Under the pieces are notes generated by a model. It did not search any database. It was not told where the DNA came from and saw only the letters and a program-made list of their open reading frames with translations. Made by a program: the position numbers and the translations under genes. DNA of 63,325 nt, counting the filler, from Folioceros fuciformis (taxonomy: Eukaryota): NCBI GenBank assembly GCA_049999805.1. It is 14 parts of 14 records of this genome, joined end to end, with 100 filler letters (N's around TTAATTAATTAA, not from the genome) between each part and the next. Parts side by side here need not be neighbours in the genome. Positions count along the whole stretch, not along the records: positions 61,031 to 63,325 come from JBNGIO010001965.1; 13 more parts are not named here. One strand, 5' to 3'. Positions 4,697 to 63,325 of this stretch are shown piece after piece; within the stretch, counting starts at the first letter, position 1; every line of letters starts with the position of its first letter.

Positions 4697-6295
4697 GTAT
4701 GTACCAAGAGGAGAGTCCGGGAGAGTCAGGCGACTTAGTAGTAGCCGTAGCACGAGCGCGGCACACCTCGTGTCAAAAGTTTTCACATAACACGAGAAAA
4801 TGAGGTCTGTTCGCGCCGGTCGATGCTAGCTAAACTTCATTTCACGGCCAGAAACCCTAAAATTGACGCCGATTCTAGGGCTTCCTGATCCCTTCTCGTA
4901 GCACTATATGCGCGGATTCGGCTCCTCGACTGTCGTCCATCTGGGGTTCCGGTTTCCAGCGAGTTCGCGCCCAGGTCCGTGGGCCTGTGTGTTGTCGCTT
5001 TGTTATTGATGTCGTGCGGATCGCCATCGTGAGTGCTTCTGGCAGAATTGAAGTAGTCTTGGTTCGCGCTTGGTGCAAGTGATGCAATGTTAATGTCAGT
5101 CTCGCGTTCTTGGCCTGTTAGTATAATCTGTAGTGGTCTGCTCGTCTGTGGCCAGCGTCTGGTTTTCTGTCACAACGGATGTGTCGGTGCAGAGCTTGTG
5201 CAATTGATGTGAAGCAAGAATAGGGACATCTCAGTGCCTTACGTGCCATGATGACTTTTCTATGGGAATCTCTCTGATGCACCAGCTCTCGCCTTCATAG
5301 CCGGCTTTTGTCGTCTGTGCAGGTGTTGTGGGCTTTCTGAACGATGGCCAAGTGCATGTGACTGATGCGCCCTCCTTTCGTCGGCCGCTTGACACTTGGT
5401 CCTATACCCTGACACATCTTCGTCTGGTCTTAGCAAACAATCTGTGAGGTCTGACGCTTCCCATGGTGATTGATGCGTAGGTTGTCAGGATGAGCTGATT
5501 GCAAAGGATTTGCGAGGTTTTTCGATCTGCTGAGTCCCCTGACAACCACCAGGTCTCTCCCCCCAAGGATATGGTGATACATGTCGTAGACATTCTCTGG
5601 CATACTGAGGACTTGCTTTGTTCCCATGTCACAGTGCTCTTCAGGGCAACTACCATTGCCCATATGTACGTGACCTAACTGCTACGTGTCCGGTTTCTCG
5701 ACCTTCGCAATTTACCACTTGCTTTGGAACAAAGCACAAATTCCCAATTCCATGGCAAGTTCCAATTCCAAGGACTTCATCTCTGCCATCTTTGCCAACC
5801 ACGTGCGAGACCCCGGGTTTTGAACTTCATCTTCTTACGATCACTCTCGGAATAAGGTTTCGTTGTCCAGACCCGCACCTGGAATGAAGCTCGAGTATAG
5901 GCACGCTGCACCCTTCACCGTAGTAAGCTTTTGGGTTACTGAAACGCGTTCTCTGAAATTACAGACATGGCGGACTGGAAACCACGCCGGCCTCCAGGCT
6001 GCTGTTTCGAGCTGAGCTGCATTGGCTTGAGACAAGTTGCTCCGAGCTGAGCTGCTGTAATCTCACGACAACCTGCTCCTACGAGTTTAGCTGCTAAGGC
6101 TTAAGCCGAAACAAGCGGGTGGCCCTGGTAAAGCACTACCTTCGAGCCGAGCTGAGGTGAGGTGAGCTTCTCGCCCGTTCGAGCTCGGCTGCTAAGGATT
6201 CCGAAATCAACTGAGCTTCATTGCTCGGTCGAGCTTGGCTGCGTATGCACCACACACAGTGTACTATACGCACTAATTCCTAAAATGACCTGTCG

Positions 6296-7996: not shown

Positions 7997-9564
7997 CGAT
8001 GTGGCAGCGTTGGATGCTGGTGGGCTGTTCTGTTCCGCGCTGCTCGTTTCTGTTCCCTTCGATGGAGGACGCCTTGGACTGAGCTGGGAGCGGGAGGAGT
8101 CGGAACTGCAAAGGCTGGGAGAGGACGCGGCATTTGTAATGGGCTGGGAGCTGGAGAAGAGCTGTCCAGGAAACCCCGAGCAACCAGGATTCTCAAGGAA
8201 AAACTAAATCCGAATCCTGGGAAAGCGGAATCGGAGCCTCCCGTATACGCGGTGCCATGTAAATGTGTCTGTGGCTGTTGGAGTTTACTATATGCATTCC
8301 AAAGGAGCACAAAGTAACGCCAATAAAATCGCAATCGCCGCCGACTCCCAGCGAGAGACGCCACTCAAGCCCAACAAAATCTAATCGGCTCTTTTCCGAA
8401 GAGCCGATGAAGCTCGGCCCTCAACGCTTTCAAGAAGCAGCCACTCGGGTATTGAGCTCCACCTCCTGATACCTCGCTGCTTCATGCTTAAATGGGCTGT
8501 CTCCCTCGCCATTTTTGCCGCCACAATTGGGGAGCGCCGACAATCTGGAATGGTTAATCATATGGTAGTCGTCGAGTCGAGACCATTTTTAGTATGCAAG
8601 TCAAGTCCGGCACTTACAACTCTGATTGTAACAAGCTGCTGAATGTGGACACATCTAGCACCTTACCCGCAGATTGCTCATACATGTCTCCGCGTTCATC
8701 TCTCACCTTGGGAGTTGTCTTCCCCATTAGTCTAGAGTAGTGTGTTCTATCACAGGCTCCGGGAAATGTTGCTACTCCAATGTGTAAAACATGCTTCTTC
8801 CATTTCCACTCATGGGAAGCCTCATTCCATGGGTCAAAAACGATCGACGCAGGGGAGCATCAGATTTTATCAGATGGAGCGCGTGAGTGTGAACAGAGAG
8901 GGCACTGGAGTGAAGGATTCGATGGCATTATCCATGTGTGCATGCACACATGTGCATACATGGAGACATACAGCTGCACACCACACGGACTGGTCTTCGA
9001 AGGGTAGGGACAGCCACTGCCGCGGCGGCTGGCATGAAGTTCATGTGCGGTGGGTCCAAGTCGGCATGTGCAGTCGTGTCCACACGTGATGACTCTCCGA
9101 TTTCTGAATCACCAGGTCCAGACCGACATGTACTTAAAAATGTGAACCTTCACAGAATGGTCCAAGGTCTCGAGACTACGTGGGCGGGCAGAGCCGGGAT
9201 TGGCTTCCCTGACGCCCATCTCACCAATCCGGGGACTGGTTGCTGTTGAGATGTCGTCAGAGGCCGTACAGCCCTGGCGGCAGCTGGAGCAGGGCACTAG
9301 TAATGGGTGGAGCTAGTCGAAGGGATGTGGTCCGTTGGGATCCGGAGCAGCCTACTCTGGGCTTTGTCAGAAGCTTAAAAATGGCTTGCCCATTGTTACA
9401 TACCTTAGCTTAACGCTTGCTGGACAGGTGTACACCTGTTCATTACACAAGAGGGGAAACGGTGCAAGAGCAAAATGTACAACTCCCGAGCACAAATAGA
9501 ACAGCTTCCAGGCTTCCAGCCTAGCCATCACTAATTCGCGAGTGGAAGCACTGTACCAATCAGC

Positions 9565-13168: not shown

Positions 13169-13865
13169 GCCCAAAGTCTAACAATGATCATCACACACAA
13201 AAATTTGTAAGCTTAAAACTAGATTTCCTCAAATATTGAATATACCAGAACCTCCTAATATAACAAGGTATTAGATCTTCATACACATCAACATACTGAA
13301 GATGCTCATAGAATCTCCCCCTTTTTAAAAGCTTATGTAAAATATATAATATGTTTCAAAAATTATTTAAATATATATATATACTTATGATTTAAGTTTG
13401 AAATTTTTATATTTTAGAAAATAATATACTGATTTATAAATATGGTATTGATCAAGAACCAATTCTTGTTAAGAATCTCTAAACGAATCAATCCTTAACT
13501 TTGCATACACGGATTGTTTATGGATGGAATTGGTGAACTTTGTTGAACCAATTCAAATATTCCTCTTGTTTCGTTTNNNNNNNNNNNNNNNNNNNNNNNN
13601 NNNNNNNNNNNNNNNNNNNNTTAATTAATTAANNNNNNNNNNNNNNNNNNNNNNNNNNNNNNNNNNNNNNNNNNNNAGTTGGTTGGTTGAGGCAATTCCT
13701 TGTTATGAGGTTTGATGCTTTATGCTAGAATCTAGGTTAGACCATATATTCTATTTAACATAAGTATGTATAACCTAAAGACTTTGTAGAAAAATTAGAT
13801 GGAAGTTCATTTACTCCGTGTCAAGGGGAACAACCCGCAATGGGGAAAAGCCAAGAATGGGGTTC

Positions 13866-15772: not shown

Positions 15773-16529
15773 GCATGGATGAGGAGGAGGCGGCAGGCAT
15801 ATCCACTTGGAATTGAGAGCCGGGAGTGTGGCGGTGGACTGTGTGGACATGTGATGCGGAAATGGAGCGCATGTGAACGTGTGAAACGGCAGTTTGAGTT
15901 TGAGGTTGGCACACGGTGCGGCGCACATGCAATGCGGATTGTGGTTGGAGAGGCGAAGTGGGAACTTGAAGGCATGTGTAGCATAAATGTTGGAAAGTCG
16001 CGTGGGTGGTATGGCAAGATTTCGGCAGGTGGTGGGTGCAGAGTCCAGTTGCACTTTTGGTGCAGCTGTTGGGTCGTAACGTAACGTTGTGCTCCACAGT
16101 GAGTGAGTCCAGTTGGTAAGAGGAGACGACGAGATGAGACGGAATAAAGAAATGGGGATGAGGCCATTCCATGCTCATATAAGTTGAGCTGGAGGAAGGA
16201 GATGAGCGATGCAGCGAGCGAAGGGATCCTGAATCTGGNNNNNNNNNNNNNNNNNNNNNNNNNNNNNNNNNNNNNNNNNNNNTTAATTAATTAANNNNNN
16301 NNNNNNNNNNNNNNNNNNNNNNNNNNNNNNNNNNNNNNTTCCTATCGCTGACACTAAGGGCACTGCCCATTAGCTAGATTTGTGTGGCTAATCATCCAGT
16401 GGGAGCTTGTTGTGTTTCTTGAGTGTCTTCATCAGACCTTTCTAGCATCACCCATTTTTGGCAAACTCTTCTATCAAAGCTCGAAACCCATAGTGATGAT
16501 AAGTTTTTGGCACCACAAATCATCAGCTG

Positions 16530-19132: not shown

Positions 19133-19232
19133 NNNNNNNNNNNNNNNNNNNNNNNNNNNNNNNNNNNNNNNNNNNNTTAATTAATTAANNNNNNNNNNNN
19201 NNNNNNNNNNNNNNNNNNNNNNNNNNNNNNNN

Positions 19233-24561: not shown

Positions 24562-24905
24562 CTGTATACCAACGACACCGNNNNNNNNNNNNNNNNNNNN
24601 NNNNNNNNNNNNNNNNNNNNNNNNTTAATTAATTAANNNNNNNNNNNNNNNNNNNNNNNNNNNNNNNNNNNNNNNNNNNNACAAATCGCAGACGCCGGGA
24701 GCGAGTGTGTGGGCGCCGTATTGACCCCGGCTGAGGAAGTCAGGATCTCGATCAGACGTAGGAGGACATTCCTGTTATGAGCGACAGAGGCCCAAGTTGT
24801 GGACATACGATTCGGAAGAAGTTGTGAGGGTAACCTGTAGAATCTACATTTCATTTCGACCAATTTCAAACTAGCTTTTTGGTTGATTTGGATCGATTTT
24901 GAAGC

Positions 24906-25892: not shown

Positions 25893-26251
25893 NNNNNNNN
25901 NNNNNNNNNNNNNNNNNNNNNNNNNNNNNNNNNNNNTTAATTAATTAANNNNNNNNNNNNNNNNNNNNNNNNNNNNNNNNNNNNNNNNNNNNACTTTGTA
26001 CAAGGACGGGACGGTCGGGTGCGCCCACACATATATACCTATACATTATTTTACTATTTTCGTAATCCTCGTTATGTATTTTCTTTACACCGAGTTTTGG
26101 GGAGATCCGCGGTAATAAAACCACAAACCTTTTCTACCACACCAAGCCTCTTCCTCTCCTTCCAGGCACGTGTTCGGCCCACCACGCTCCATGGAAAAAA
26201 ACTATTGTTGTTTGATATATTTTTATGCAGAGTAATGATTCTGTTCATCTT

Positions 26252-26332
26252 GTTGACATGGCCGAGTTGGTCTAAGGCGCCAGATTAAGGTTCTGGTCCG
26301 CAAGGGCATGGGTTCGAATCCCATTGTCAACA
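26252..26332 (+). tRNA. tRNA-Leu(AAG)
   Basis: GTTGACA/TGTCAAC acceptor stem, A-box TGGCCGAGTTGG, anticodon arm CCAGA-TTAAGGT-TCTGG, long variable arm, B-box GGTTCGAATCC. Confidence 0.95.
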
Positions 26333-29180: not shown

Positions 29181-30264
29181 GTGATATCAGCCCGTTAGAT
29201 GTACCGAACTGGAAGAGACGCCTGCGAGCAAAGTAGCTCACACATTTGGTGCCAGCATCGTGCCAGGCCCGATGAGCAGCAAAATCTGCGCTGTCTGTCT
29301 CCGCTCGTCCTTCACCACTGCGAGTGCGAGCAGAAAAACGAATCAAGCGGGTCGTGACAATATCCGCTGTCCAAGCTGTAGCGAGCGCTGTTCTCTCATG
29401 TGGTTTGCTGCCGACGCCGGTGGGATGTTCTTTATGCTCAACGGGGAAGTGCGAGTGAAGGCCGAGCAAATTAAGGCGGTCGTTGAAGAAGTGGGTGGCG
29501 TGGTCGACTGCGGCTACTAGAGTCGGGTTCCGGGAAGCAAAGCTGAAACTCGGGCGGACGTCCTAGGCAGGACCGGGAATGGTCCTGGTAACTGAGCCGC
29601 TCACCAGCTCATTGCCAAATCCCATATTCCAGAAGTTTCTCCGCTGGCACGTTTAACGTGGGACCTACAAGCCATTTGCGAAGTCGCGGAGGGATGCCCT
29701 GAAGGCCAGGCCGCTCACAAATCCGCAACTCACACGATGCCCTGGAGAGCTGTCCAATATTCCGTCACCAGCTGGTCATCACAGCATGCAGTCGTGAATT
29801 TCTGACGTCATTCTTCTGTCGTGTTCCCGGCAGGCTTCCTGAAAGCCTTTGACGTGACAGATGTCGGCGTCGTGGAAGAAAGTAGACACAAATTCTTGCG
29901 GGAACGAGATAGCGTGGTTTTCACGAGGAAACGTCGAGGCAGTCTGTGAAGAACTTCCGCCAGTAACCAAATGACGTCGTCTGCTGAGGTTTCGGCACGT
30001 ACGGTTCTGAACACAAAGACGGGGGGGTGTAAGAGGGCTTCAAAGCCCGTGCCCTTTATATGGCAGGAGCAACAATTCTGCTAGTTATGACAAAGGAAAC
30101 ACCAGCCCGGAACAATGCAGGGTGGTGTATCACCAATCTAATGTACAGAGACTGGGCAAGGGGCNNNNNNNNNNNNNNNNNNNNNNNNNNNNNNNNNNNN
30201 NNNNNNNNTTAATTAATTAANNNNNNNNNNNNNNNNNNNNNNNNNNNNNNNNNNNNNNNNNNNN

Positions 30265-37797: not shown

Positions 37798-39812
37798 CAT
37801 TCCTTCTTTTGTGTCCAATAATTCTCGGAAACTTTAGCCTACGTCCATATCTACATCCAAAAGGAACGCGTGTTGCATTATTGGACTGGAATGCAGCTCA
37901 CGCATACCAGGCCTCTTTATGGGTGTCTCGACTTGTGAGCTGCAACGCATTATGATATCAGGTAAACCATTGTCATCACTCCAGGCCTGGAATTCATGAT
38001 TGCTTGCTTCTTACTCGTAGGCTGTCGCCCGTTTGTCAGATATCTGATCCCTATGCATCTGATACTTCACTTGTGTTACTATGTATGTACTTACTGTATG
38101 TTTCTTCAGTGAATAGTACTGTATCTCGGCGATCTCACACCTTCCTCATGATTTGGTAGATGTGCAGTGAGTGAGTTCTTACATATTTACCTGTCAGAAG
38201 GGGATGTTTTTAAGCATGCCATATTTAGTAGCAGTAATGGTGTCCAATTGTGTACACATTCCAGAGAGTATGGGTGCCATCCCACATCATTAAATGCGAG
38301 ATCAGACTGGAAAAATTGAGTCAGGAGCCTGGCCTATTATAGCCAGCCTTGAACTCTCGGTCAGAACATCTGGCAAGGCAGTGCTCGTGTTACAGGTCTT
38401 CATGTGTACTGCAAGCTCGACCGCGACTGAAGGGGCCTAATTACGGCATTACGTGCGGCAACACGCGGGTCCAGAAAGGAAAAAAGGGGGAGACGGGAGA
38501 AAGAACACCCGCGGATTGGCCGCCCGGAGACGCGCCCCTCCGTTTTACACCTTGAAACGGGGCGGCTCGAGAGGCCCCGTTCTAGCCGGTGGGTGGCTCC
38601 TTCAACGCGGGGAAGCCGCGTGGTTTGGGACCGGGCCCACCGCCCATCACCAGCTTCCGGGGCACGCTCCTTGCGCGCCCCGTTTGGCACTAGTTTGGTG
38701 TATAGTGCTGACTAGGGTTCGACCAGGAGGAGAGGAAGCGAGCGCCGCATGGTCGTGCAGCGTGACGTGCGGTGGAGGGAGAACCAGTTCTGCCGACCAC
38801 GGGTTCGAGCCGCATCTGATGACAGACACAGAGCCAGCTTGCTCCTTTAAGAGCGTGTTGCGTGCGGGCCCCTTCCGCCTGGAGCTAGTTCCGCTGATCT
38901 TGTCCCCGGCGGTGCTCTGGCCCCGGTGGTCCGCTCCGGCGCCGGTGGTCCGATCTTGCGGACCAGTGATTCCGCCGTGCACGGCACTGGTTGCTCTGGA
39001 GGTGACGCTGCCTCTGCGTCGCCTCACTCGGTCTGGTCCAAGGCTGGGAGCGTGTTTTCCCCGAGCTGCCTCGTCTTTGCTTTGATTTTGGTCGGCCTTG
39101 GACTTGCCGGGCTCCTGCTTTGTCCCGGTAACGGAGTGTTGGATAATGTGTTGAATNNNNNNNNNNNNNNNNNNNNNNNNNNNNNNNNNNNNNNNNNNNN
39201 TTAATTAATTAANNNNNNNNNNNNNNNNNNNNNNNNNNNNNNNNNNNNNNNNNNNNGGGATAAAGACGCAGAAGCCATCCCACGCCACTCACTGCAAGAG
39301 GCTGTGTGTGACACGGGAGGAGGAGAGCGTTGGGAGCCAAGGGCGAAGCGCGAAACGCGAAACCCAAACCGGCGAGGGAGGAGAGAGAAAAGGGCGGGTA
39401 TGTGTGAAGTAATTCCAGCATTTTACCGCAGATTTTAAATGGGTAGGGTCGTTTTGTGGTTGCCGACATTCCTGGCCTTGTGTTTGGAAGGGGATGGGTG
39501 GATTGTGGACAGAGGGGCAGGATCGTTGGGTGGTGTGCCTCACTGCGTGCCTGCTTTCTGCACTCCCTCCCCTCCCTCCCACCTCCCATCTCCCGCGCGC
39601 CAGAAAGGCAATGCGGAGCAGCGCTGTCTGCCCGAGCTCGGACTCTGCTCCCACGCGCCTGTGAGAACATCGGGGTCGGGGACGGGGTCGGAATCGGAGT
39701 CCGGCTCGGCTCCGGTTGAGGCCGCCGGGAGTGGGATCGACGCCAGCGGCGGGAGTCCTCTACCCGTCCTTGGCCTTGGCCTCGGCCTGGGGTTGGACCA
39801 GAGGACCGGAGG

Positions 39813-41873: not shown

Positions 41874-44045
41874 TATTCCAGCTCCCGCCAACCTACACGC
41901 TATAAGAAGCGTGGGAGTGTGCGAGAGCCGCTGAACCAGGTTCCAAGAATCAGAGGTGTCCGGCAGGACAAGGAACAAGAGGCGAGTGCAGCCCGAACCA
42001 CCGGACTCCACTGCCTTGCATGGGCCCCGCACCTGGCCCGGTTTCCGGCTGTATGTACACTCCTTCCCTAGCTGCCTGCGCCCCTGTAGGCTATGAGATC
42101 AGCGGCCCCGGATACTTTGCCACAACCACATCAGCATAATATAGAGGATATCCCTCCCTGAAGCTTTTCGCACGATTCGTCTACGCCTGTCAAGCATGTG
42201 TCTACCCCATCGCCTGTCAAACGCTCCCACCGAGGCCCAGTGCTTGGTATGCTGGACAAGATTGAAGCTCACGAAAGAACCGACTCCCTTCGCACTCCGC
42301 CTTCATGCATTTGCGGAGCGAATACCTGCACGTGGACAACACACCCTGCCCCTGTTCCCGTGGGTACAACAACGTTACCCTGCATCCAGTTCCCATGAAC
42401 CCGCCTAGGAACATGACAGGAGCCAATCGCTCTCCTTGTCAGACCACCCGTAGATAAGGATGCATGGTGCAAACACCGAGTTACTGTTCAAGTGCAAGGA
42501 ATGCAGGGCCAATGCTGAGCGCTTCCTTGGCTTCCAAGGTCTCCATCTCCATCGTCCATACGCGCTGTCGCCTCCCGCCCGTTGGCACCTCTCTTTCTCC
42601 GCGTTTCTCTTCTCCCTGTTTTTCTATCTTCCTCCAGCACCTTCGGTGCCCGCCTATCTCCCGGCTCGCCTTTTAATGGCAACTGCGGCCAGCAACAGCA
42701 GCGGCACTGCCGGCGGCCCTGGCCCAAGCCTCCTGTGGCACGCTGATCTCAACGTGTGTGTGTGCGAGCTGTCGTCTCTGGCTTCCCGTCCTCCTTTCCC
42801 CTTTCTTCCTTCTTCCTTCAGCCATCCTCGCGAGTGCCGGCCCCGTTCCGTTACTTCTTCCGCTACGTGGAGCGATCTCAGCCCAGGAGTGTAGGGTTTT
42901 GGTGCTCTCCCCCTCGCGCTCCCTCTCCCGTTGGCTCAGCATGTCGGAAAGGTAGAAACCCTCGCCCAGGGTCGGGGATGGCACATACGTCTGCCTCACC
43001 CTCCGTCGTAACGACGGTGACCTAATTTAGAGATGGCGTTAGAATTAGCGCTGTTGCGAAAGAGTATAAAATTGGGAGACAGCAAAATTTGCTCCCTCCT
43101 TTCGCATTCTGGGCTTTCGCTGGCGTGTCGCTCCACGCCAGGCCAGCCTTCCCCCACTTCCTCGCCCTTCCTTCCCTTTCCGTCCCTGCCCGCCTGCGGA
43201 TGCCCTTAGCGCGGCTGCGCCTGCGTCGGCCCTCCTCTGGCCCCCATTCAACACAGCTTCTGCCAATTACGTCTCTTGTAGCGGCAAATTCCCTGCTGGC
43301 CGCCGCGCTGGGCGCCTGGATCCCGCCTCCTGCCGCTGCTTGCTGCCACTAAGCCTATTGCTGCTGCCTCACTGCCCCNNNNNNNNNNNNNNNNNNNNNN
43401 NNNNNNNNNNNNNNNNNNNNNNTTAATTAATTAANNNNNNNNNNNNNNNNNNNNNNNNNNNNNNNNNNNNNNNNNNNNCCCCGGACCTACATCGAAGCAA
43501 AATCAAGCGCTTCACAGCACGCACAGACGCTTCCACCACCGCCACATCTAATACCAATTGTTTCAAGTTTAGAATTCTGCAACCAAGTTCCGCAATGGAA
43601 GGTTATTTTGCAGACCCTCTACAAAAAGCTCTTACATTTTCTTTTTCTTAATTCCACACAAATATTGCACACCAAGGTCAAGATCCTATACCTATGACTT
43701 AGGTGGGCATGGCCCCATCACATTGTCTTTCTAAACTACTTTTATACCTCTAAGTCGAAGTTCCTCTTGGTCTTTGAAAACATCATCTTGTTCCATTAAA
43801 ATTACTTTATTATCTTCCGTGCAATTAAGCAAGCTTCCCTTCATGTCCAACTCCTATGTGTTTGCCGAGGTCTGCTGTCCTTCTAGAAGGATTTTTCTTG
43901 TCTCCATCTTTGCCCTTTGCAATCTAAGTGGCACAATCAAAATGTAGCTACTCATTAGGTCCGTTAATAGCCTCATTATAAGATTGAGGATATGGCCTCA
44001 CTTCTAGTATATGTAGGCTAGAAACATGAGCTTGATGTCAAAATT

Positions 44046-47470: not shown

Positions 47471-48337
47471 CACAACCTTATCAAGACACAATGAGACATG
47501 GCCAACACACAACACTCGTTCAAAGAGGAACAAGAGTGCGTAGATCAAGAGAAAGACATATCCTTTAAAATTAAAAGCTAAGGGCAAGCTCCTCAACCTC
47601 GACCACTGCACCTCATGATCCTACTAGACGTTGTGCAACACATACAGCCAGCATACGCTGCTTAGCTAAGCAAGAATAGACTAGAAGGGCTGACATAACG
47701 AACACAATTAAGAGCCAAGGGCCTCACCCTTGACCCTGGCCATTGCACCTGATGGTCCTACCAAATGCTGTGCAGTTGCAAATCCGATGTACACTGCTAG
47801 TTCTAAACCAAGCAGGGATAGACAAGGAGAGCAAGACATGACCATTTGAATCCTACAGGCTCAATCTATCTTACAGGAGCCTCTCTCTCTCCTACCTCAT
47901 TGAAGAAGAAGAAGGGTCAATAGCCAAAGGTAGGCTTGAAAACGGTAATTCCCAAAGCAAAACCGGGTTGAATACGAAGGTTGTCATGGTTGTTGGAGTC
48001 TAGCTCATGGGTGGCTAGACTATCCTTAGATGGTTCGATAGGTGAAGTAGCCGAATGACAACCTTGGGAAAAGTAGCAAAATTAGGAAAAGAAAAAAAAA
48101 AAGAGAGAAAGAAAAGAAAAGGAAAAGTAATGCGGAAGGGGAAACGGGATGGAGGACATAGGGTGGAAGAAGGCGCGCACGTGGCAAGGAGATGGTCAGA
48201 GCACGAGATAGAGGAGAATTGGCGGGATGGGGTGGAANNNNNNNNNNNNNNNNNNNNNNNNNNNNNNNNNNNNNNNNNNNNTTAATTAATTAANNNNNNN
48301 NNNNNNNNNNNNNNNNNNNNNNNNNNNNNNNNNNNNN

Positions 48338-53090: not shown

Positions 53091-54211
53091 TGTCTAACAA
53101 CTTGTACTGCCCATTCCACAATTAGATATCCTTATCCCTTAGGTAAAGCCCCTATAAAAATCATTTTGCAATTCAAGATGTTGTAGCAACCTTAAACACC
53201 TCGAGAAATGGCTCATCAAGGGCCTAAGGGTTCAAATTCTAGGGTTCCATTACCTTTTTACTTTTCCCACATTTAGTAGCCTTTAAATCAATCTATTGGT
53301 ATCTAGAAGTGCGAGTTGGAAGCTAAGTTGCATTTGCAAGTCCACACTAAGAACCAATTGTCACACAAAAGTTTGCACTAGAAGTAAACCACTACGCACA
53401 AGTTCTTGCTCCGAGCGTGCCCACGCTCACAAGTGTACACTATGACCTAGTTGCTATGTACTTGTGCGTGCCATGACCCACTTGACACGCACAAGTGTAC
53501 GCCATGACTAAGCTGGCGCGCACTTGTGTGCGTGATGAACGAACTGGTGCACACAATTGCACTCCATAACCTAGCTAACAAACATTTTAAGCACATAATG
53601 GTCAAACAAATCCTAAAAATAGCAAAAAAGCCCAAAAGATCCCTTTTTCTAGACAGTTGCGCAAACAAGTTTGCGCCATATTGCTTCAAGGTTTTATTGT
53701 TACTTTTCCCCTATTTTTACTATTTTGTATGAAAAAGTCTATTTTGATCATTTTTAACCCCTTCTAGCACAATTTTGTAATAAAATATGAGTTCATCTTA
53801 ACTAGTCCTCAATCTTTCTTTCTTTTGATAGTCTAAACCTTTGAGTAAGTAGTGAGGACNNNNNNNNNNNNNNNNNNNNNNNNNNNNNNNNNNNNNNNNN
53901 NNNTTAATTAATTAANNNNNNNNNNNNNNNNNNNNNNNNNNNNNNNNNNNNNNNNNNNNTATTTATACTCCACAGCTAAGCCACTGCTAAAACTGGGAAT
54001 GATACACACCACTCATCCTAGAATACTAGTGGTCATTACAACTCCATCCTTCTTAGGAGGTTTTGCCTGGAACACACATTTTGTTTCCAAAGGCAGCAAG
54101 AAGCATACTTGCTTCTTCATCAAGACAGCTCTAGATTTAGCTTTCATCTTTCTACTTTTAACTTTCACCTTATTTCACTTATGCCACCTTATGCCATTAC
54201 TCTCTTCCCCA

Positions 54212-57200
54212 CTAGGAAGATGTCATTGTCCTCAATGACCTGCAGTATAACGTGAGATCATCCATGATCCTTGTTGCACATCTTGAAGTGAAACCCAGAC
54301 AAGATCTGTTCATGTCGTCATTCTCTTTCGAAATCACAAACGGTTTCAGCAAAGAGACATGAAACACATCATGAGAGAAGATCCAATTAGGCAGTTGTAG
54401 TTTGTAAGCCACATTCCCAATGCGCTTTAGAACTACGAAAGGACCTCCATACTTAGGCCTTAACTTTGGGGACAATCCTTGAGGTACTGGGAAGTGTTTC
54501 AACTTTACCCAAACCTTGTCACCCACTTGAAATTCTGCCTCTTTCCTGTGCCTATTAGCAAACTTCTTTTGCCTGTCTTGAGCTTTGGCCAAAATCCTCT
54601 TAGCAATTTCATGCCTGGCGCTTAACTGCTCAATAAATTCACGTGGTTCTCTTGCTGCTGTCTCAAACACGTCAGCATTCAACATGGAAACTGCGTCCAT
54701 TGCTTCGTTACCTGTCATCTGAAAAGGTGTATAGCCTGTGGAGCTATGTACAGTATTGTTATAACAAAACTCTGCATCCTCAAGATGATTACTCCAGTTC
54801 CTTTGGTCCATTTGTACATAGTGTCGTAAGTATTCCTCTTGGATTCTGTTTACTCTTTCTGTAGATCCATCTGTATCAGGGTGATATGCTGTACTTAGAC
54901 ATAGTTGCACTCCCAAGCTCTTCATAAGCTGTTGCCAAATTTCCGCTGTGAATCTGGGATCTCTATCACTCACAATTTGCATAGGCAATCCATGTAACAC
55001 ATAGATATGCTTCTTAAACAATTGAGCAACTTCTAAAGCCTTCACTTGCTTCTTCGTGGGGATAAAGTGTGCTTGCTTGCTGGACCTATCAACAACTGTC
55101 ATGATAGCTGTGTATCCATTACTGGGTGGCAATGGCATAACAAAATCCATTGATATACTCTTCCAAGGCCCACTTGGAATAGGCAGGGGTTGCAACAAAC
55201 CTCGTGGATTTGTCTGCTTTACTTTATCCTGCTGACAGTCTACACAAGACTTCACATACTCTACAGTATGTTTGTACATTCCAGGCCAGTAAAACAGCTT
55301 CTTCAACTTCTCATAAGTTGTGTCAATTCCCCGATGACCAGCACTTAACACATCGTGACATTCTGCAAGCAACTTTTTTCTCAACTCTTGAGAATCAGGA
55401 ATCACAATCCTGTTTTGCTTGAACATTAACAAGCCATTTCTAAGCTTAAACTTAGACCCCGGTTGCTCTATCTTGTTGATCCAATCTTGCACTAATGGAT
55501 CATGCAAATAAGCCTCTTTAATCTGCGTGTGAGTGTCCCTTGGCTCAATCACCATCCGCGTTGTAGCTAGCTTAGGATTCTTCAGCTTAAAAACAGACAT
55601 TAAACTCAACTCCTGCTTGCGACTAAGAGCATCTGTCACGAGATTTTCCTTCCCTGGCTTGTGCTTAATCTCTACATCATACATCGCTAGGAAATCTTGC
55701 CATCTAGCTTGTCTAGCATTTAGTCGCAGCTGATTAGAAAAGAAGCTTGTACTTACATTATCTGTGTACAGCACAAAAGATCTTCCAAGAAGATAGTGTC
55801 TCCAAATCTTGAGACAATTGATGACGGCTGTCATCTCCTTCTCATATGTGGGGTATTTCCTCTCATGTTCATGCAACTTTCTTGATTCGTAAGCCACTGG
55901 CCTACCTTCTTGCATAAGCACTCCTCCAATAGCTGTATCTGACGCATCAGTATACACTTCTATATATTTCTTTGGATCATAGATTGCTAGTACTGGGGTA
56001 GTGCTAAGTTTCAACTTGAGAAACTCAAATGCCCTTTGACATTCTTCATCCCACTTCCATGTCTTCACCTTCTTCAAGAGATCAGTTAATGGGGCAGCAA
56101 TTTTGGCAAACATTGGTACAAATCTTCTATACACGCTAGCCAATCCTAAAAAGATACGCACTTCATGCACATTGCTTGGCGGCAGCCAACTCTGTATGGC
56201 TTTTACCTTACCAGGATCCATCCTGATTCCATCAGCAGAGACAATGAATCCAAGGAAGTCGATTTCTTCCTTAACAAAGTCACACTTTGTTATAGCTAAG
56301 AACAAAGAATTTGCCCTTAACCTTTCCAACACTTTCCTCAAGTGTTGGACATGCTCCTCTAAGGTAGAACTGAATATCAAAATGTCATCCAAATAGATCA
56401 CAACACACTCATCCAACAGATCTCTGAATATACTATTCATAAGAGTCTGAAATGTGGCTGGTGCATTAGTGAGTCCAAATGGCATGACTAGAAATTCAAA
56501 AGATCCATACCTTGTCCTACAAGCAGTTTTGTATTCATGTCCTTCTGCGATGCGAATCTGGTAATAACCAGCCATCAAATCCAGTCTGGTAAAATACTTA
56601 GCACCTTTCAACCTGTCAAACATATCATCCATCCTTGGCAAAGGATAGGAATTTTTTACTGTTATCTGGTTGAGTGCTCTGTAATCCAAGCATAACCTTA
56701 ATCCTCCATTCTTCTTTCGCGTAAACAATACTGGCGCACCAAATGGGGATTTTGAGACTCTAACATAGCCCTTGGCTAACAAGTTAGACATTTGTCTCTT
56801 CAATTCTTGAAGCTCATCTAGCGACAATCTATATGGCGCTCTTGATGGCGGTACACTTCCTGGCTTTAGATCAATTTCATGATCTACAACTCTCCGTTGA
56901 GGTAAAGGAGGTAACTCAGTAGGCATTAAGTCTTTAAACTCATCTAAGACATCCTGTATCTCCTTTGGAATCTTTGGTTGCTTCTGAGATTCCATCTCAA
57001 GACCATCTTCTAGTCCTTGCAACACCAACAAATAGAGTTCCTCTCCATTTTTGACACAACGCTTGAGCTCTTTCTTAGAGATGACTTCATCAATCTTGTG
57101 CCCAAGCTGATGCTCAAGGACTGCACAACTCACTTTGTGCTTTTCATCTCCTACGATCTGTATGGTGCGTGAGTCCACGTCTACACATACCTTATTGGCC

Positions 57201-57478
57201 TTCATCCATTCTAAGCCCAAGATGATTTCATGATCATCCATATCTACAACTGTGAAGCTTGCTTGTCCTGTCCAATTGCCTATCTGCAAAGGAACTTTTT
57301 CTAGCTGTCCTAAGAACTGCAGCTTTCCTTTTGCTTGTTTCACTATACATGGCTCTGAAATACTAGCCCATGTCAAACCAAGCTTACTTGCTCTGCCAGG
57401 AGAAATGAAATTATGTGTTGCTGCTAGATCAAGCAACATCTTCGCTTCTTCACGATTCACACATCCTTCTATATACAT
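54212..57478 (-). mobile_element. Ty3/Gypsy (chromovirus-like) pol, open 1088-codon ORF: PR-RT-RH-INT
   Basis: [86 protein letters not shown]. Confidence 0.95.
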
Positions 57479-58059
57479 GAGCTCTCCACCTGCCCTATGA
57501 ATAATGCTGTCCTCAGCATCTTGAGAGTCACCACATGTAGCCTGTGCAACATGTGGCCAATCCCGTCATTTGGGATTTTCAGATCCGGATACTTCTGTAA
57601 TCCTGAGTCTTTGGGGCTGTGGGTTGTCTTGAACAACATTCAAAGTTTGTTGAGTATTGGGGCATTCATTCGCGTAATGTCCCGGCTNNNNNNNNNNNNN
57701 NNNNNNNNNNNNNNNNNNNNNNNNNNNNNNNTTAATTAATTAANNNNNNNNNNNNNNNNNNNNNNNNNNNNNNNNNNNNNNNNNNNNTCTACGTGCAAGT
57801 GTAGGAGAGGAGAGGAGAGAAGAGAGGGTGGTATTGGTGATCACAACCATGAAAACAATACACATCACCACTGTCTTACTATGGAGGTCCGAGGTCTCCA
57901 TTTAAGTAGTACATTTAGGGCTACACAACTTCCAGGTTCAATATGGGATAATCTACACTATCCTAAGTTCACTAATAACTAGAACTAGTCTAGTATGAAC
58001 CCAACTGGGATAACTAACACCACATGAGTTTAGCTCATATAGAGCTCGATAACTCAACA

Positions 58060-59380: not shown

Positions 59381-59794
59381 NNNNNNNNNNNNNNNNNNNN
59401 NNNNNNNNNNNNNNNNNNNNNNNNTTAATTAATTAANNNNNNNNNNNNNNNNNNNNNNNNNNNNNNNNNNNNNNNNNNNNGTGTTGGTGCTGGAGCGAGA
59501 GAGTGAGTGAAGTGAGTGAAGGAAGTCGCAGATCTGAGAGGTTAGAGTCGTTGTAGTGACTGGAGTGAGTTTGTGGGCACCGAGAGAGGTGCAGCTGACC
59601 GCCGGACAGCGAGGCCTGTCCTACGCCCGATCGGAGCTGGAGGGGAGCCCTCGAATCCATCATCGAGTTGATCAAGTCCGACCCTCCATCCACAGCAGCA
59701 AGGAACCCCATCGCTCCTTCGTGGGAACGAAACCCAATGTCTCAACGACAGTGGGATAAGTGTGGCCACTAAAGGTGGAACCCGTCGGCAATCA

Positions 59795-60930: not shown

Positions 60931-61031
60931 NNNNNNNNNNNNNNNNNNNNNNNNNNNNNNNNNNNNNNNNNNNNTTAATTAATTAANNNNNNNNNNNNNN
61001 NNNNNNNNNNNNNNNNNNNNNNNNNNNNNNT

Positions 61032-63325
61032 CACAAGAATGGACATGTAGTCATAGTATGTTTTCAGAAGCATCCAGAGAGAAGATCTCAGAAAAATGCA
61101 AGTAGTGGGACAAGGACTATAGCAGTCGATCTTGGAGGTACAGCTACCACAGAAGTTGGTATTAGTGTTGGGGTCTCACGCAGCCGACAGCAAAGGGACA
61201 AGGCCAAAGCTAAGGCTGCATCCAATGCAGAGAAGGTATCTGCCCTAGAAGTCACTGTTGCAACGTTATCTTCACAGCTGGGCGCGCTTACAGCCAGTCT
61301 CAGTAGTGGAGCAACCTCACCCAAACCAGCCAGTGTTGCTGAACTGGTCAAAGACAAGGAGGAGGATTACGGCTCACCACATTAGGTGTGTGTCGCCAAC
61401 TGGATGGAGCCTGAGATGACAATTGTTGAGTTGCCACACACGTGGGTGGGGCAACATTTATACCCACCAGTGTTGGAGACAGCAGCAGGGCCAGTCACTC
61501 GGCAGCGAGGAGTGAGGGCGGTCATGCCCCAGTCTTTTGCACCACTGTCACCAGGAAGTGCAATCCCAGTTCAAGGGCAAGAGCATTCCACATTGGCAGG
61601 AGGGCCACAGACAGTAGACAAGCCTCCACTGCAACCACAGGTGTCAGCTAGTGGGCCAGTCTACTTGATGCCCAGGGCCTTCACTGTGGAACAATTATCT
61701 GAGAAACTGACTGGCATTCCTCTATTCTCTTTGCAAGACATGGGGCTAGGACATGAGCATTTGCCCAAGGAATTGCAACCAATGCAAGTAGTTGTATTGT
61801 CTTCAGGAGCGTCATGCTGGCCACTAGCTCCAGATGGGTGGGTGGTACTTGGTAGCATCTCACCTTGCAGCAGGGAGACAGTCGTTGGAAGCATGTTCGA
61901 AGTTGCAGCAGCTGGAAGGCAGCCTGCTCAACCCATTAGCTCTCCTATGATCCAACACACCAACCGCCTAGCAGTCAGAGTCGGCAATGCACTTGTTGAC
62001 AATGATGCGGGGCATATTATGGTGAATTGGTATGCCCCAAGGGTTGTACTGCTCGACACTGGTGCTCAACCAGTGATCATTGGCAAGACATTAGCTGCCA
62101 GGCTCAACCTCGATGGTTCAGCTCTCAAGAGCTCTCCTTGGAGCATAAGGATAGCATCAGGAGCCATTGAGCCAGTCACCGGAGCGACTATCAAGACTGT
62201 GGATATCACACTCAAGCCAGGCACCCCAGATGCCATGACGCTGAGTCTTCCATGCCTAGTGACAACAGCCACAAACTATGACGTGCTGTTAGGGCAAGAA
62301 ATTCTGTTTCCACCAGGTTTAACTGTGGACAACTGGATAGAGCAGGTGTATTATCGTCCAGATTGGAAGCAAGGAGGGAGAAGGGTGGCACACTTACCCC
62401 TTCGATTGCATTACATGTCAGAGGCTGACACAGCTACACTTGTAGAGCGACAAGCCTGTACAACAGTCCTGGTCAGTGAGGGAACACCCTTGGCCAGCAA
62501 CCATTTGCAGGATGAGGACCACCTAGAGTCAGAGCAAGAGGAGGAGCATGGTGACAGCTACTCAAGCAACACCACAACCACATGCAGATTGACAGATCTG
62601 ATCAAGGCCGCTGACCATCCCACACAGGTTGAGGGTGTGCTGCAGGATGCTTACGAGCATGTCTAGTAGGTGCAAGCTCTGTTGCAGCGAGGACTCAAGG
62701 ATCCCATGCAAGAGCATGTTTTTAAGTCTCAGGTGATTGATTGGCCTATCCCAGCCGCCAGCCTTTTTCACGTGGAGCTGTTTGGCGGCATTTGTACTAG
62801 CCTAAAGGCTTTGCTTAAGGTAGGCCTCCCTATCAGGCGTTATGTATATTGTGACAGCAGCAGGGAAGCACGGCAGATAGCTGCTCATCGCTTACAGGAG
62901 CTCCGCAGCAGGTTCCCCACACAGCTATCGGAGGCAGCCTTAGCTACCACATTCTTAGCACTACCTCAAGACGTTAGGTACATCCCGGCCCTGGGATCCA
63001 TAGACGTGCTAATAGCTGGCTGGGAATGCCAAGGGTTCTCCCAAGCAGGTGCAGGAGCGGGATTGGAGGACCATCGCACTGGGTTGTTTCGAGACCTGCA
63101 ATAGATCTTGGCATGGGTGCAACAGGAAAATCCACAGTGTGGCTATCTCCTCGAGAACACCCCAGCGCAGCTTGACAAGAGGGATTCCGTGCGACAGGAC
63201 ATGGCAGTCGTGGAGCACCATCTTGGTGCTCCCTTTCTTTTGGATGCTATCCAGGTGGGTAGTTATGCGCACCGTCTCCGCAACTACTGGACCAACCTCA
63301 TCCCTAATTCAGTCTTGGCACTCGT
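61032..63325 (+). mobile_element. Retrotransposon polyprotein (gag zinc knuckle - aspartic protease - C5 DNA cytosine methyltransferase), decayed, both ends outside the visible sequence
   Basis: One reading frame with only TAG stops (61383, 62664, 62667, 63102): HKNGHVVIVCFQKHPE; LLDTGAQPVIIG (D at 62055) and YDVLLGQE; then the DNMT motifs. Confidence 0.85.
62760..63325 (+). pseudogene. DNMT3-like C5 cytosine methyltransferase domain inside the retrotransposon polyprotein
   Basis: Motif I VELFGGI (62772), II YVYCD, III QDVR, IV DVLIAGWECQGFS (Cys 63027), GLEDHRTGLF, VI YLLENT (63153), VIII AHRLRNYWTNL (63267). Confidence 0.88.

Follow-up and report, generated by a model that had tools for sequence, protein, structure and literature searches.

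KnitGypsy-Dnmt3 of the alga Klebsormidium nitens was described as a Gypsy-type retrotransposon with a non-rearranged DNMT3-like domain in its polyprotein, and the legend of Fig. 4c notes a DIRS-like repeat layout in K. nitens (de Mendoza et al. 2018, PMC5890265). The same paper reported that its domain produced no de novo methylation in yeast, a result that the authors called inconclusive because human DNMT3B also failed. SymbioDIRS-Dnmt3 of Symbiodinium, which was acquired independently according to that account, carried the only retrotransposon DNMT3-like domain that the report presents as methylating CG de novo, again in yeast (PMC5890265).

We analyzed a window of 63,325 nucleotides (the whole stretch of DNA examined here) and focused on its last contig, in which a preliminary description had noticed a cytosine methyltransferase within a retrotransposon polyprotein. 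To our knowledge, published cases of transposon-borne DNMTs are so far limited to dinoflagellates and a single charophyte alga. Apart from the 2018 study of algae and articles that cite it, our literature search for DNMT-bearing retrotransposons in land plants returned nothing, which was consistent with the earlier remark that no land-plant description was known. From the domain anatomy and homology of the contig, its place in the family, its occurrence in many copies and its decay, we concluded with a probability of roughly 0.85 that it derives from a Ty3/Gypsy-type LTR retrotransposon of the KnitGypsy-Dnmt3 type and represents a dead, truncated copy, with the order gag, linker, protease, DNMT3-like domain and, past the end of the contig, predicted reverse transcriptase (RT), RNase H and integrase, and with many diverged copies in the nuclear DNA of the source organism.

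Reading frame and gag-protease region

The contig (61031-63325; 2295 bp) was one of 14 in the window. Because the 13 linkers were identical (N44-TTAATTAATTAA-N44), the window consisted of 14 unlinked contigs, none of them physically linked to 61031-63325, and the gap noted earlier in front of this contig was indeed artificial. In a six-frame stop count, frame +1 of 61032-63325 comprised 764 codons and was interrupted 4 times, in each case by TAG, compared to 22-40 stops in each of the remaining five frames. The preliminary description had proposed a single frame broken at only four TAG codons, and we recovered this frame. It begins with the tail of a probable zinc knuckle and continues through a linker and a retropepsin (PF13975) into a C5-methyltransferase (PF00145). 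The features upstream of the methyltransferase, together with all in-frame stops, were as follows (L002 and L003 are related loci on metagenome contigs).

60931..61030, no strand: artificial linker, N44 + TTAATTAATTAA + N44, one of 13 identical linkers in the window
61032..61061, + strand: probable gag CCHC zinc knuckle, last 10 residues (H-x4-C), cut by the contig start; read from the sequence
61194..61751, + strand: linker between gag and protease, aa 55-240; homologous to the corresponding part of L002/L003
61383..61385, + strand: in-frame TAG, codon 118; frame +1 translation
62037..62306, + strand: retropepsin with D-T-G active-site motif, aa 336-425; PF13975 and PF13650
62664..62669, + strand: two adjoining in-frame TAG, codons 545-546, in the acidic protease-DNMT linker; frame +1 translation
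63102..63104, + strand: in-frame TAG, codon 691, between motifs IV and VI; frame +1 translation

The 10 residues at the contig start (HKNGHVVIVC) were not significant alone. The position of the gag knuckle remnant proposed earlier was supported by collinearity with the CCHC knuckles of relatives, and the remnant is a probable one. Specifically, L002 and L003 contained a full CCHC knuckle ~64 codons upstream of the linker that aligned to window aa 55-240, and a zf-CCHC domain was also located upstream of the protease in the related proteins P0019, P0005 and P0016. The linker matched no Pfam family, and it was 24% identical to that of L002/L003 over 221 aa in tblastn searches of a small database of 67 loci (E of 6e-8 and 3e-7). 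In the case of the protease, the gag-asp_proteas family PF13975 matched aa 336-425 with 30.0 bits (cut-off 28.2, stops read as X), PF13650 matched the same stretch with 26.6 bits (cut-off 24.3), and identity to the L002/L003 protease was 42-48%.

A tblastn search found no second copy of the element within the window, and a search for repeats or an LTR inside the 2.3-kb contig gave only short matches at chance level. In contigs from DNA runs, the place of TAG codon 691 was occupied by a sense codon in other copies, and frame 1 stayed open for the 30 letters past 63325, as judged by eye.

Some observations concerned the other contigs of the window. An ORF at 1145-1876 gave a sub-threshold N6_N4_Mtase match and had no PDB relative at E<=1, and a 4CL-like ORF was 29-37% identical to database matches, among the 120 listed. 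An Rfam search of these contigs gave one tRNA and one plant-type snoRNA only.

The DNMT3-like domain and its catalytic motifs

The methyltransferase ran to the contig end, and its features are listed below. The conservation statements refer to two alignments, one of 10 sequences (A1) and one of 26 sequences (A2).

62769..63325, + strand: DNMT3-like C5-cytosine methyltransferase, motifs I-VIII only, the contig end preceding IX-X; PF00145 and DNMT3A/3B alignment
62775..62792, + strand: motif I ELFGGI, SAM-binding FxGxG; E36, F38, G39 and G40 invariant in 10/10 sequences
63015..63041, + strand: motif IV AGWECQGFS, catalytic Cys kept, Glu replacing the canonical Pro; E-C-Q invariant in 10/10
63147..63161, + strand: motif VI LLENT, ENV-type catalytic Glu; E162 invariant and N163 nearly so in 26 sequences
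63267..63299, + strand: motif VIII AHRLRNYWTNL; A200, R202, R204 and N209 invariant; aligned to AHRARYFWGNL of DNMT3B

The canonical order of motifs I, IV, VI and VIII described earlier was recovered in a single-stretch alignment to motifs I-VIII of DNMT3B, and this order is non-permuted, unlike that of DRM. A PF00145 search had been proposed as a check, and the DNA_methylase family was matched above its gathering score of 22, with 28.4 bits at aa 655-718 of the whole frame and 30.9 bits for the DNMT part alone, the match covering only profile positions 59-119 of 324. The window copy kept all of the family-invariant residues, including F38, G39, G40, Y58, D62, C120, E162, R202 and R204.

When the window DNMT alone was compared to PDB chains, the best match was DNMT3B (1.4e-3). 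A profile built from the 26 family sequences ranked DNMT3A (6.9e-24), DNMT3B (7.8e-21) and DNMT3C (2.5e-20) ahead of NtDRM (3.6e-14), DRM2 (1.5e-9), M.HhaI (1e-8) and DNMT2 (3.6e-5), and no DNMT1 or chromomethylase, by chain name, was among the PDB matches listed at E<=1. Positions 333-380 of the family profile, which come from relatives and lie beyond the end of the window contig, aligned to motifs IX-X of DNMT3A. This ranking agreed with the assignment made in the preliminary description and supported the prediction that the window methyltransferase is DNMT3-like.

The Pro-Cys catalytic dipeptide is near-universal in this class of enzyme. The window motif IV lacked it and had Cys preceded by Glu, as noticed earlier. 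This change is a conserved trait of the family and not a lesion, because 105 of the 147 motifs found among 189 sequences read E-C (35 read P-C and 7 were other dipeptides). All seven readable members of the window's clade had E-C.

Relatives, copies and source of the contig

A phmmer search of 1.84 billion representatives gave 1226 matches at E<=1e-3. The named relatives were Klebsormidium nitens, Mesostigma viride, Closterium spp. and Calypogeia fissa, and in four proteins (P0001, P0019, P0021 and P0060) the window query covered protease and DNMT in one stretch. The protease-DNMT adjacency recurred in 34 of the 188 retrieved relatives, from several taxa, with the architectures PR-DNMT (27), PR-DNMT-RT-RH-INT (4), PR-DNMT-RT (2) and DNMT-RT (1). 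In P0016, the order was zf-CCHC, PR, DNMT, RT, RNaseH and integrase. Loci L002 and L003, which belong to the window's group, carried PR, DNMT, RT, RH and INT on one strand and were flanked by direct repeats of 300 nt and 263 nt that were 86% alike and ~9.79 kb apart; both loci showed decay, and their DNMT match contained 7 stops.

Linkage of protease and DNMT in other copies had been named earlier as decisive, and it was found in these 34 relatives and in L002/L003. Together with the single frame in the window and the adjacency in Klebsormidium and Calypogeia, this finding supported the original proposal of a retrotransposon with a DNMT in its polyprotein. The RT, RNase H and integrase that had been expected downstream were present in the closest long relatives, L002/L003, together with the flanking direct repeats, and also in P0016; in the window copy they would lie beyond the end of the 2.3-kb contig. 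Because the window contains none of these four features, the full architecture of its copy is predicted from relatives that are 38-48% identical, and the copy would once have had RT, RNase H, integrase and LTRs as they do.

The phylogeny suggested in the preliminary description placed the window with Calypogeia and apart from Klebsormidium; the comparison with DNMT3, DRM and bacterial enzymes was made via the profile ranking given above, and the DNMT trees carry no root from host DNMT3 genes. Specifically, the window grouped with both Calypogeia proteins in a clade of six with a FastTree support of 97 (152 rows), and the same clade had an SH-aLRT of 95 in a smaller tree (52 rows). With L001-L003 added, the clade comprised nine rows and had moderate support (SH-aLRT 83, no starred set). 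The window DNMT matched transposon-borne relatives at up to 4.5e-57, with DNMT-part matches of 1e-25 to 1e-48, compared to only 1e-3 for DNMT3A/B.

The multi-copy state of the element was apparent in three DNA runs from two studies with one species label. Contigs with at least 80% likeness to the stretch numbered 284, 280 and 2 in the three runs, counts that are not depth-normalised to single-copy genes, and the two counts of ~280 come from two runs of one sample. The identity classes in run X1 contained 55, 89, 74 and 66 contigs, and none of the contigs from the three runs spanned the whole 61032-63325 stretch. Differences among copies were mostly transitions, and 32 of the 40 best-supported differences listed were non-synonymous. 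The CpG observed/expected ratio of the contig was 0.34, which matched the 0.33-0.35 of the window's other transposon contigs and was below the 0.65-0.88 of the genic contigs. The copy in the window is dead. The DNA runs of the source organism contain many such copies, diverged from one another, and decay occurred mostly by transitions, as in methylated repeats.

Two other origins for the contig were weighed against these data. Bryophyte samples commonly carry algae, and the contig, which is unplaced and 2.3 kb long, is joined by an artificial linker; with all other named relatives being streptophyte or green algae (Klebsormidium, Mesostigma, Closterium and Chlamydomonas eustigma), the sequence might come from a contaminating alga or another associated eukaryote rather than from the plant genome. 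We considered this quite improbable: a liverwort harbors the closest relatives that have a name, and the contigs that carry them measure 13-21 Mb, the window grouped with Calypogeia in three trees, and its CpG depletion equals that of the other transposon contigs. Moreover, contigs of graded divergence were found in each of two runs (~280) and, under the same label, in a second study (2). The source of the contig is likely to be a land plant. In the second alternative, the DNMT would be a fragment of a DNMT3 gene of the host, and a one-off nested insertion or an assembly chimera would have brought the protease next to it. This idea draws on the shortness of the contig and on the fact that a host DNMT3 is retained in bryophytes (Yaari 2019, via PMC10952607). 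It can practically be set aside, because protease and DNMT share one frame, the adjacency recurs in relatives and in L002/L003, and the similarity to transposon-borne DNMTs far exceeds that to DNMT3A/B.

A different question is whether the element is as we describe but its DNMT domain is a pseudo-enzyme that binds DNA, RNA or chromatin, or an enzyme with another substrate. The Glu in place of the canonical Pro throughout the window's clade and in most of the family suggests such a role, as does the yeast result for KnitGypsy-Dnmt3, although that null was called inconclusive by its authors given the failure of human DNMT3B (PMC5890265). Among sequences only 35-53% identical, however, the SAM-binding residues of motifs I-III, the catalytic Cys of motif IV, the Glu of motif VI and the Arg residues of motif VIII were invariant or nearly so, which is the pattern expected from selection for catalysis. 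We regarded a noncatalytic or differently directed domain as unlikely, though far less so than either of the two alternative origins.

Proposed mechanism and comparison with described systems

The reading that we prefer, a dead Gypsy-Dnmt3 copy, suggests how live members of the family may work. Their polyprotein would be cut by the protease, and the DNMT3-like domain, either released or attached to pol, would use SAM to methylate cytosines. The target may be newly reverse-transcribed cDNA or the integration site, and a new copy would then enter the genome already marked. Both the catalytic activity and the substrate in this scheme are predictions for live members; the window copy itself is a dead fragment with no present function.

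The preliminary description had left open whether the element was inherited from streptophyte algae or independently acquired. Because linker, protease and DNMT are collinear with those of the algal elements, one common origin of the element type is favored, whether its spread between hosts was vertical or horizontal. We tentatively suggest, at somewhat less than even odds, that Gypsy-Dnmt3 is an old streptophyte-wide lineage (Mesostigma, Klebsormidium and Closterium) that extends into land plants (liverworts and the source organism), with E-C conserved in most members and with a module that moved between the PR-RT and RNaseH-IN junctions.

Cytosine methylation is the plant host's main weapon against transposons, and a transposon that supplies a de novo methyltransferase itself turns this relationship around. 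If it occurs both in the genome of a liverwort and in a plant-like source, the element type would change from an algal curiosity to a lineage that came along when plants colonized land and, if true, would be the first transposon-encoded writer of 5-methylcytosine seen in embryophytes. Should the E-C enzymes be active, de novo methyltransferases that the host does not control would be present in the genomes of land plants. The element also provides bryophyte epigenetics with a specific candidate for methylation by a non-host enzyme. The conserved Glu-for-Pro exchange in the catalytic motif also poses a testable biochemical question on C5-methyltransferases.

Among known systems, host DNMT3A/B/C and plant DRM were the best structural relatives by profile. 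The window DNMT shares with the DNMT3 type the non-permuted I-IV-VI-VIII-(IX-X) order and the motif VIII AHRxRxxWxNL, but it differs from host enzymes in having no PWWP or ADD domain, in being part of a retroelement polyprotein, and in its E-C (not P-C) and ENT (not ENV) motifs. DRM has permuted motifs and a far lower profile score. SymbioDIRS-Dnmt3 resembles the window in that a DNMT3-like domain is borne by a retrotransposon within pol; it differs in being a tyrosine-recombinase (DIRS) element without the protease-DNMT junction.

Gypsy elements with a DNMT between RNase H and integrase carry the same DNMT family, mostly with E-C and 40-49% identical to the window's domain. They differ from the window in the junction (RT-RH-DNMT-INT), which was seen in 77 of the 188 relatives and in loci L005, L018, L019 and L027. 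Most of the carriers were on metagenome contigs, and they included Chlamydomonas eustigma proteins. For this DNMT family, our literature search returned no account of such an arrangement.

The nearest named relatives were Calypogeia fissa proteins (CAM6094570.1, CAM6104163.1 and P0286), which have the PR-DNMT order and GWECQ, as in the window. In the case of Calypogeia P0281, BLASTP gave 4e-88 and 38% identity over 424 aa, from the protease to motif VI. The Calypogeia proteins, two or three in number and located on chromosome-scale contigs of 13-21 Mb, are 38-48% identical to the window and represent either another family or a lineage that separated long ago. Their sole annotation is "unnamed protein product", and no paper on C. 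fissa protease-DNMT proteins was found in the literature search.

The K. nitens protein GAQ93235.1 (P0019) has the order zf-CCHC, protease and DNMT, and its protease, linker and DNMT were collinear with those of the window in a BLASTP match of 7e-45 over 453 aa. It differs in sequence (29% identity), in its motif IV (GFPCQ in Klebsormidium, GWECQ in the window's clade) and in the tree, where the two DNMTs fall into different clades. The host of KnitGypsy-Dnmt3 is an alga, whereas that of the window looks like a land plant. As in the Gypsy-Dnmt3 type, the window DNMT lies in the protease ORF, directly after the protease, and is homologous to that of the K. nitens element.

Reading frame and domains of the element fragment

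Frame +1 of 61032-63325 contained only 4 stops in 764 codons, all of them TAG (codons 118, 545, 546, and 691), and each of the other five frames contained 22-40 stops. A Pfam search of frame +1, with X at the stop codons, identified the following domains.

aa 336-425, frame +1: retropepsin PF13975, 30.0 bits (cut-off 28.2)
aa 655-718, frame +1: C5 DNA methylase PF00145, 28.4 bits (cut-off 22)

DNMT motifs I, IV, VI, and VIII were in canonical order. Thus, the preliminary description of one frame split by four TAG stops and running from a retropepsin into a C5 methyltransferase was accurate, and the PF00145 search that it proposed was positive. As for its gag knuckle remnant, the first ten residues were compatible with a terminal CCHC knuckle segment, although they were not significant taken alone. 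When the DNMT part alone was searched, the DNMT3B and DNMT3A catalytic domains each aligned without a break across motifs I-VIII (E 1.4e-3 to 3e-3), and M.HhaI matched around motif IV only.

The window was composed of 14 small contigs (1.2-13.6 kb each) and was not a single locus. Between them stood 13 artificial linkers of identical sequence (N44-TTAATTAATTAA-N44).

13577-13676, 16239-16338, 19133-19232, 24581-24680, 25893-25992: linkers 1-5
30165-30264, 39157-39256, 43379-43478, 48238-48337, 53860-53959: linkers 6-10
57688-57787, 59381-59480, 60931-61030: linkers 11-13

The contigs were unplaced, and neighborhood was biologically meaningless throughout the window. The retrotransposon fragment was the last contig (61031-63325, 2295 bp) and had no physical link to the others, as an earlier caveat about an artificial gap had warned. 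Plant-type content on the other contigs included a B_lectin/S_locus_glycop/PAN ectodomain ORF, a laccase fragment, a copia gag, an intact Ty3/Gypsy pol, and a 4CL-like ORF (no more than 29-37% identity to any of the 120 matches listed from a search of 5.8 billion proteins).

5197-5283, + strand: plant-type box C/D snoRNA, R44/J54/Z268 family (58.2 bits)
26252-26332, + strand: tRNA gene
54212-57478, - strand: uninterrupted Ty3/Gypsy pol, 1088 codons, on its own 3.7-kb contig
1145-1876, + strand: open frame, 243 codons, with a sub-threshold PF01555 match

The Ty3/Gypsy pol comprised protease, RT, RNase H, integrase, and a Tf2-type SH3 domain without any DNMT, and the CpG observed/expected ratio of its contig was 0.33. 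The 243-codon frame scored 23.1 bits (cut-off 26.7) against the N6/N4 DNA methylase family PF01555 over the C-terminal SAM-binding part, and it had no PDB relatives at E<=1. An N4-cytosine methyltransferase of prokaryotic derivation is known in the liverwort Marchantia, according to the available part of bioRxiv 10.1101/2021.02.12.428880.

Relatives and domain order

A single metagenome scan with a 10-sequence family alignment yielded 67 loci, among which L002 (19.5 kb) and L003 (12.0 kb) were the two long ones that most resembled the window over query residues 21-218. Both carried protease, DNMT, RT, RNase H, and integrase on one strand, with proteases 42-48% identical and DNMTs about 41% identical to those of the window copy. 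A complete CCHC knuckle was present upstream, as was a linker that matched window aa 55-240 at 24% identity across 221 aa (E 6e-8 and 3e-7 in the 67-locus database). Flanking the coding region were direct repeats (300 and 263 nt; 86% alike) at a spacing of about 9.79 kb. With the upstream part included, the whole 764-codon frame was therefore collinear with an element of LTR type. The two loci were decayed; each had a single ORF of at least 200 aa, and its DNMT match was interrupted by 7 stops. In L002, about 670 nt between protease and DNMT (8233-8905) was an inverted copy of positions 1-690 at the contig start; this block is probably another repeat nested within the element.

When 1.84 billion representatives were searched with phmmer, 1226 matches were obtained at E<=1e-3, including 442 at <=1e-10 and 56 at <=1e-30, and the best 150 were listed. 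Among the matches listed, protease and DNMT were spanned in one stretch in several proteins (P0001, P0019, P0021, and P0060). Another, P0016 (2188 aa), contained zf-CCHC, aspartyl protease, DNA_methylase, RVT_1, RNase H, and integrase. Thus, the RT, RNase H, and integrase predicted downstream were present in L002, L003, and P0016, and the window contig itself ended before that region. Named algal members came from Closterium spp., Mesostigma viride, Klebsormidium nitens, and, more distantly, Chlamydomonas eustigma. The K. nitens protein (GAQ93235.1) had zf-CCHC, then protease, then DNMT, and its match to the window covered 453 aa (E 7e-45). The leafy liverwort Calypogeia fissa was also represented; its protein P0281 (411 aa, protease plus DNA_methylase) matched from protease to motif VI at 4e-88 (38% identity, 424 aa).

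Domain order was classified in 188 proteins with local phmmer probes made from the window's Ty3 pol and parts of the query. DNMT adjoined the protease or preceded RT in 34 proteins (27 PR-DNMT, 4 PR-DNMT-RT-RH-INT, 2 PR-DNMT-RT, and 1 DNMT-RT) and followed RT/RNase H or preceded integrase in 77; DNMT alone was detected in 67 and no DNMT in 10. The RT-RH-DNMT-INT order, in which the DNMT of a Gypsy pol stands between RNase H and integrase, was found mostly in metagenome proteins (P0020, P0025, P0031, P0033, and others) and loci (L005, L018, L019, and L027), with C. eustigma among the named sources. Some of these proteins, such as P0025, also had G-patch and PHD domains. In unrooted trees, the RT-RH-DNMT-INT group mostly formed one cluster beside the window's clade.

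All DNMT-domain trees, including the proposed comparison with Klebsormidium element DNMTs, were unrooted and built without a host DNMT3 outgroup. In a FastTree of 152 rows (149 of 179 domain matches, covering motifs I-VIII, plus three partial rows), the window was one of 6 members of a clade (support 97) whose others were both Calypogeia proteins and three unnamed fragments. The same clade was recovered (SH-aLRT 95) in a quick IQ-TREE run of 52 rows, from which 8 duplicate or long-branch rows were left out; the rows kept included 21 from the RH-DNMT-INT region of the tree and 12 others. When loci including L002 and L003 were added, the window clade comprised 9 rows with moderate support (SH-aLRT 83).

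Methyltransferase class and motif IV

A profile of 26 aligned family members was run against all PDB sequences. The best matches were DNMT3A (E 6.9e-24), DNMT3B (7.8e-21), and DNMT3C (2.5e-20), ahead of tobacco DRM (3.6e-14), DRM2 (1.5e-9), M.HhaI (1e-8), and DNMT2 (3.6e-5), and the matches listed at E<=1 included no chain named DNMT1 or chromomethylase. The profile alignment extended over motifs IX-X of DNMT3A, a region past the end of the window contig. Judged by profile similarity, the methyltransferase domain is DNMT3-like and non-permuted, as initially proposed.

In motifs I, II, III, VI, and VIII, the positions for SAM binding and catalysis were invariant or nearly so in the alignments, and the window copy retained all of them. 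In motif IV, E-C-Q was invariant in the 10-sequence alignment. The 188 proteins plus the window were searched with a pattern that required motif IV and then motif VI; E-C was found in 105/147, P-C in 35/147, and other residues in 7/147, and 42 had no such pattern. GWECQG[FL]S was present in 7/7 members of the window's clade that could be read; L002 and L003 were too decayed to count. On this evidence, E-C in place of P-C is a family trait. The preliminary description was correct about the Glu before Cys, which is not a lesion of this copy.

Decay, host origin, and proposed activity

Parts of the stretch were present in 3 DNA sequencing runs from two studies with one species label. Contigs of at least 80% likeness numbered 284, 280, and 2, and in one run, X1, they fell into graded identity classes (55 at >=99%, 89 at 95-99%, 74 at 90-95%, and 66 at <90%). 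The best-matching run may come from the sample that was assembled, which keeps this evidence from being fully independent. The CpG observed/expected ratio was 0.34 on the element contig, 0.33-0.35 on the window's other transposon contigs, and 0.65-0.88 on genic contigs. The Calypogeia proteins were encoded on chromosome-scale contigs of 13-21 Mb. Taken together, the copies in the runs, the CpG match, and the liverwort matches make it unlikely that the contig came from a contaminating organism. Changes among copies were transitions for the most part, and 32 of the 40 best-supported differences listed (305 more lay beyond these) were residue-changing in frame +1. In many, the window had T and other copies had C, and at 1 of the 4 stops other copies had a sense codon. 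This pattern fits private, deamination-type decay, and the window copy is a dead fragment.

What was observed is the anatomy and kinship of the element; the mechanism is proposed. In live members, gag-PR-DNMT-RT-RH-IN would be translated, the protease would process the polyprotein, and the DNMT3-like domain would methylate cDNA or the insertion site. The available text of de Mendoza et al. 2018 (PMC5890265) proposes cDNA self-methylation for pol-embedded DNMTs and describes KnitGypsy-Dnmt3 in K. nitens. In its yeast assays, CG methylation was shown for SymbioDIRS-Dnmt3 alone; no methylation was obtained with the domain of KnitGypsy-Dnmt3, a result that the authors considered inconclusive. That the E-C domain is non-catalytic, or has an otherwise different role, strikes us as less likely than not, but as a serious alternative.

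Overall, the results supported the reading of a retrotransposon with its own DNMT3-like domain. In a search of the main texts of openly accessible literature, Gypsy-Dnmt3 was described only by de Mendoza et al. 2018 in K. nitens, the name 'KnitGypsy' occurred in a single paper, and, as previously suspected, no land-plant description was found. The available parts of two later sources (PMC12344493 and bioRxiv 10.64898/2026.05.21.726589) mention Gypsy-Dnmt3 only as "streptophytes", citing the 2018 paper, and the available part of a 2022 review of land-plant transposons mentions no transposon-borne DNMT. The element is thus of the known Gypsy-Dnmt3 kind, in a host group where reports appear to be absent. 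Two points may concern specialists, namely the same DNMT module at two pol junctions and the conserved Glu-Cys catalytic dipeptide. In the case of the dipeptide, motif IV of the window's clade reads GWECQ, unlike the GFPCQ of Klebsormidium.
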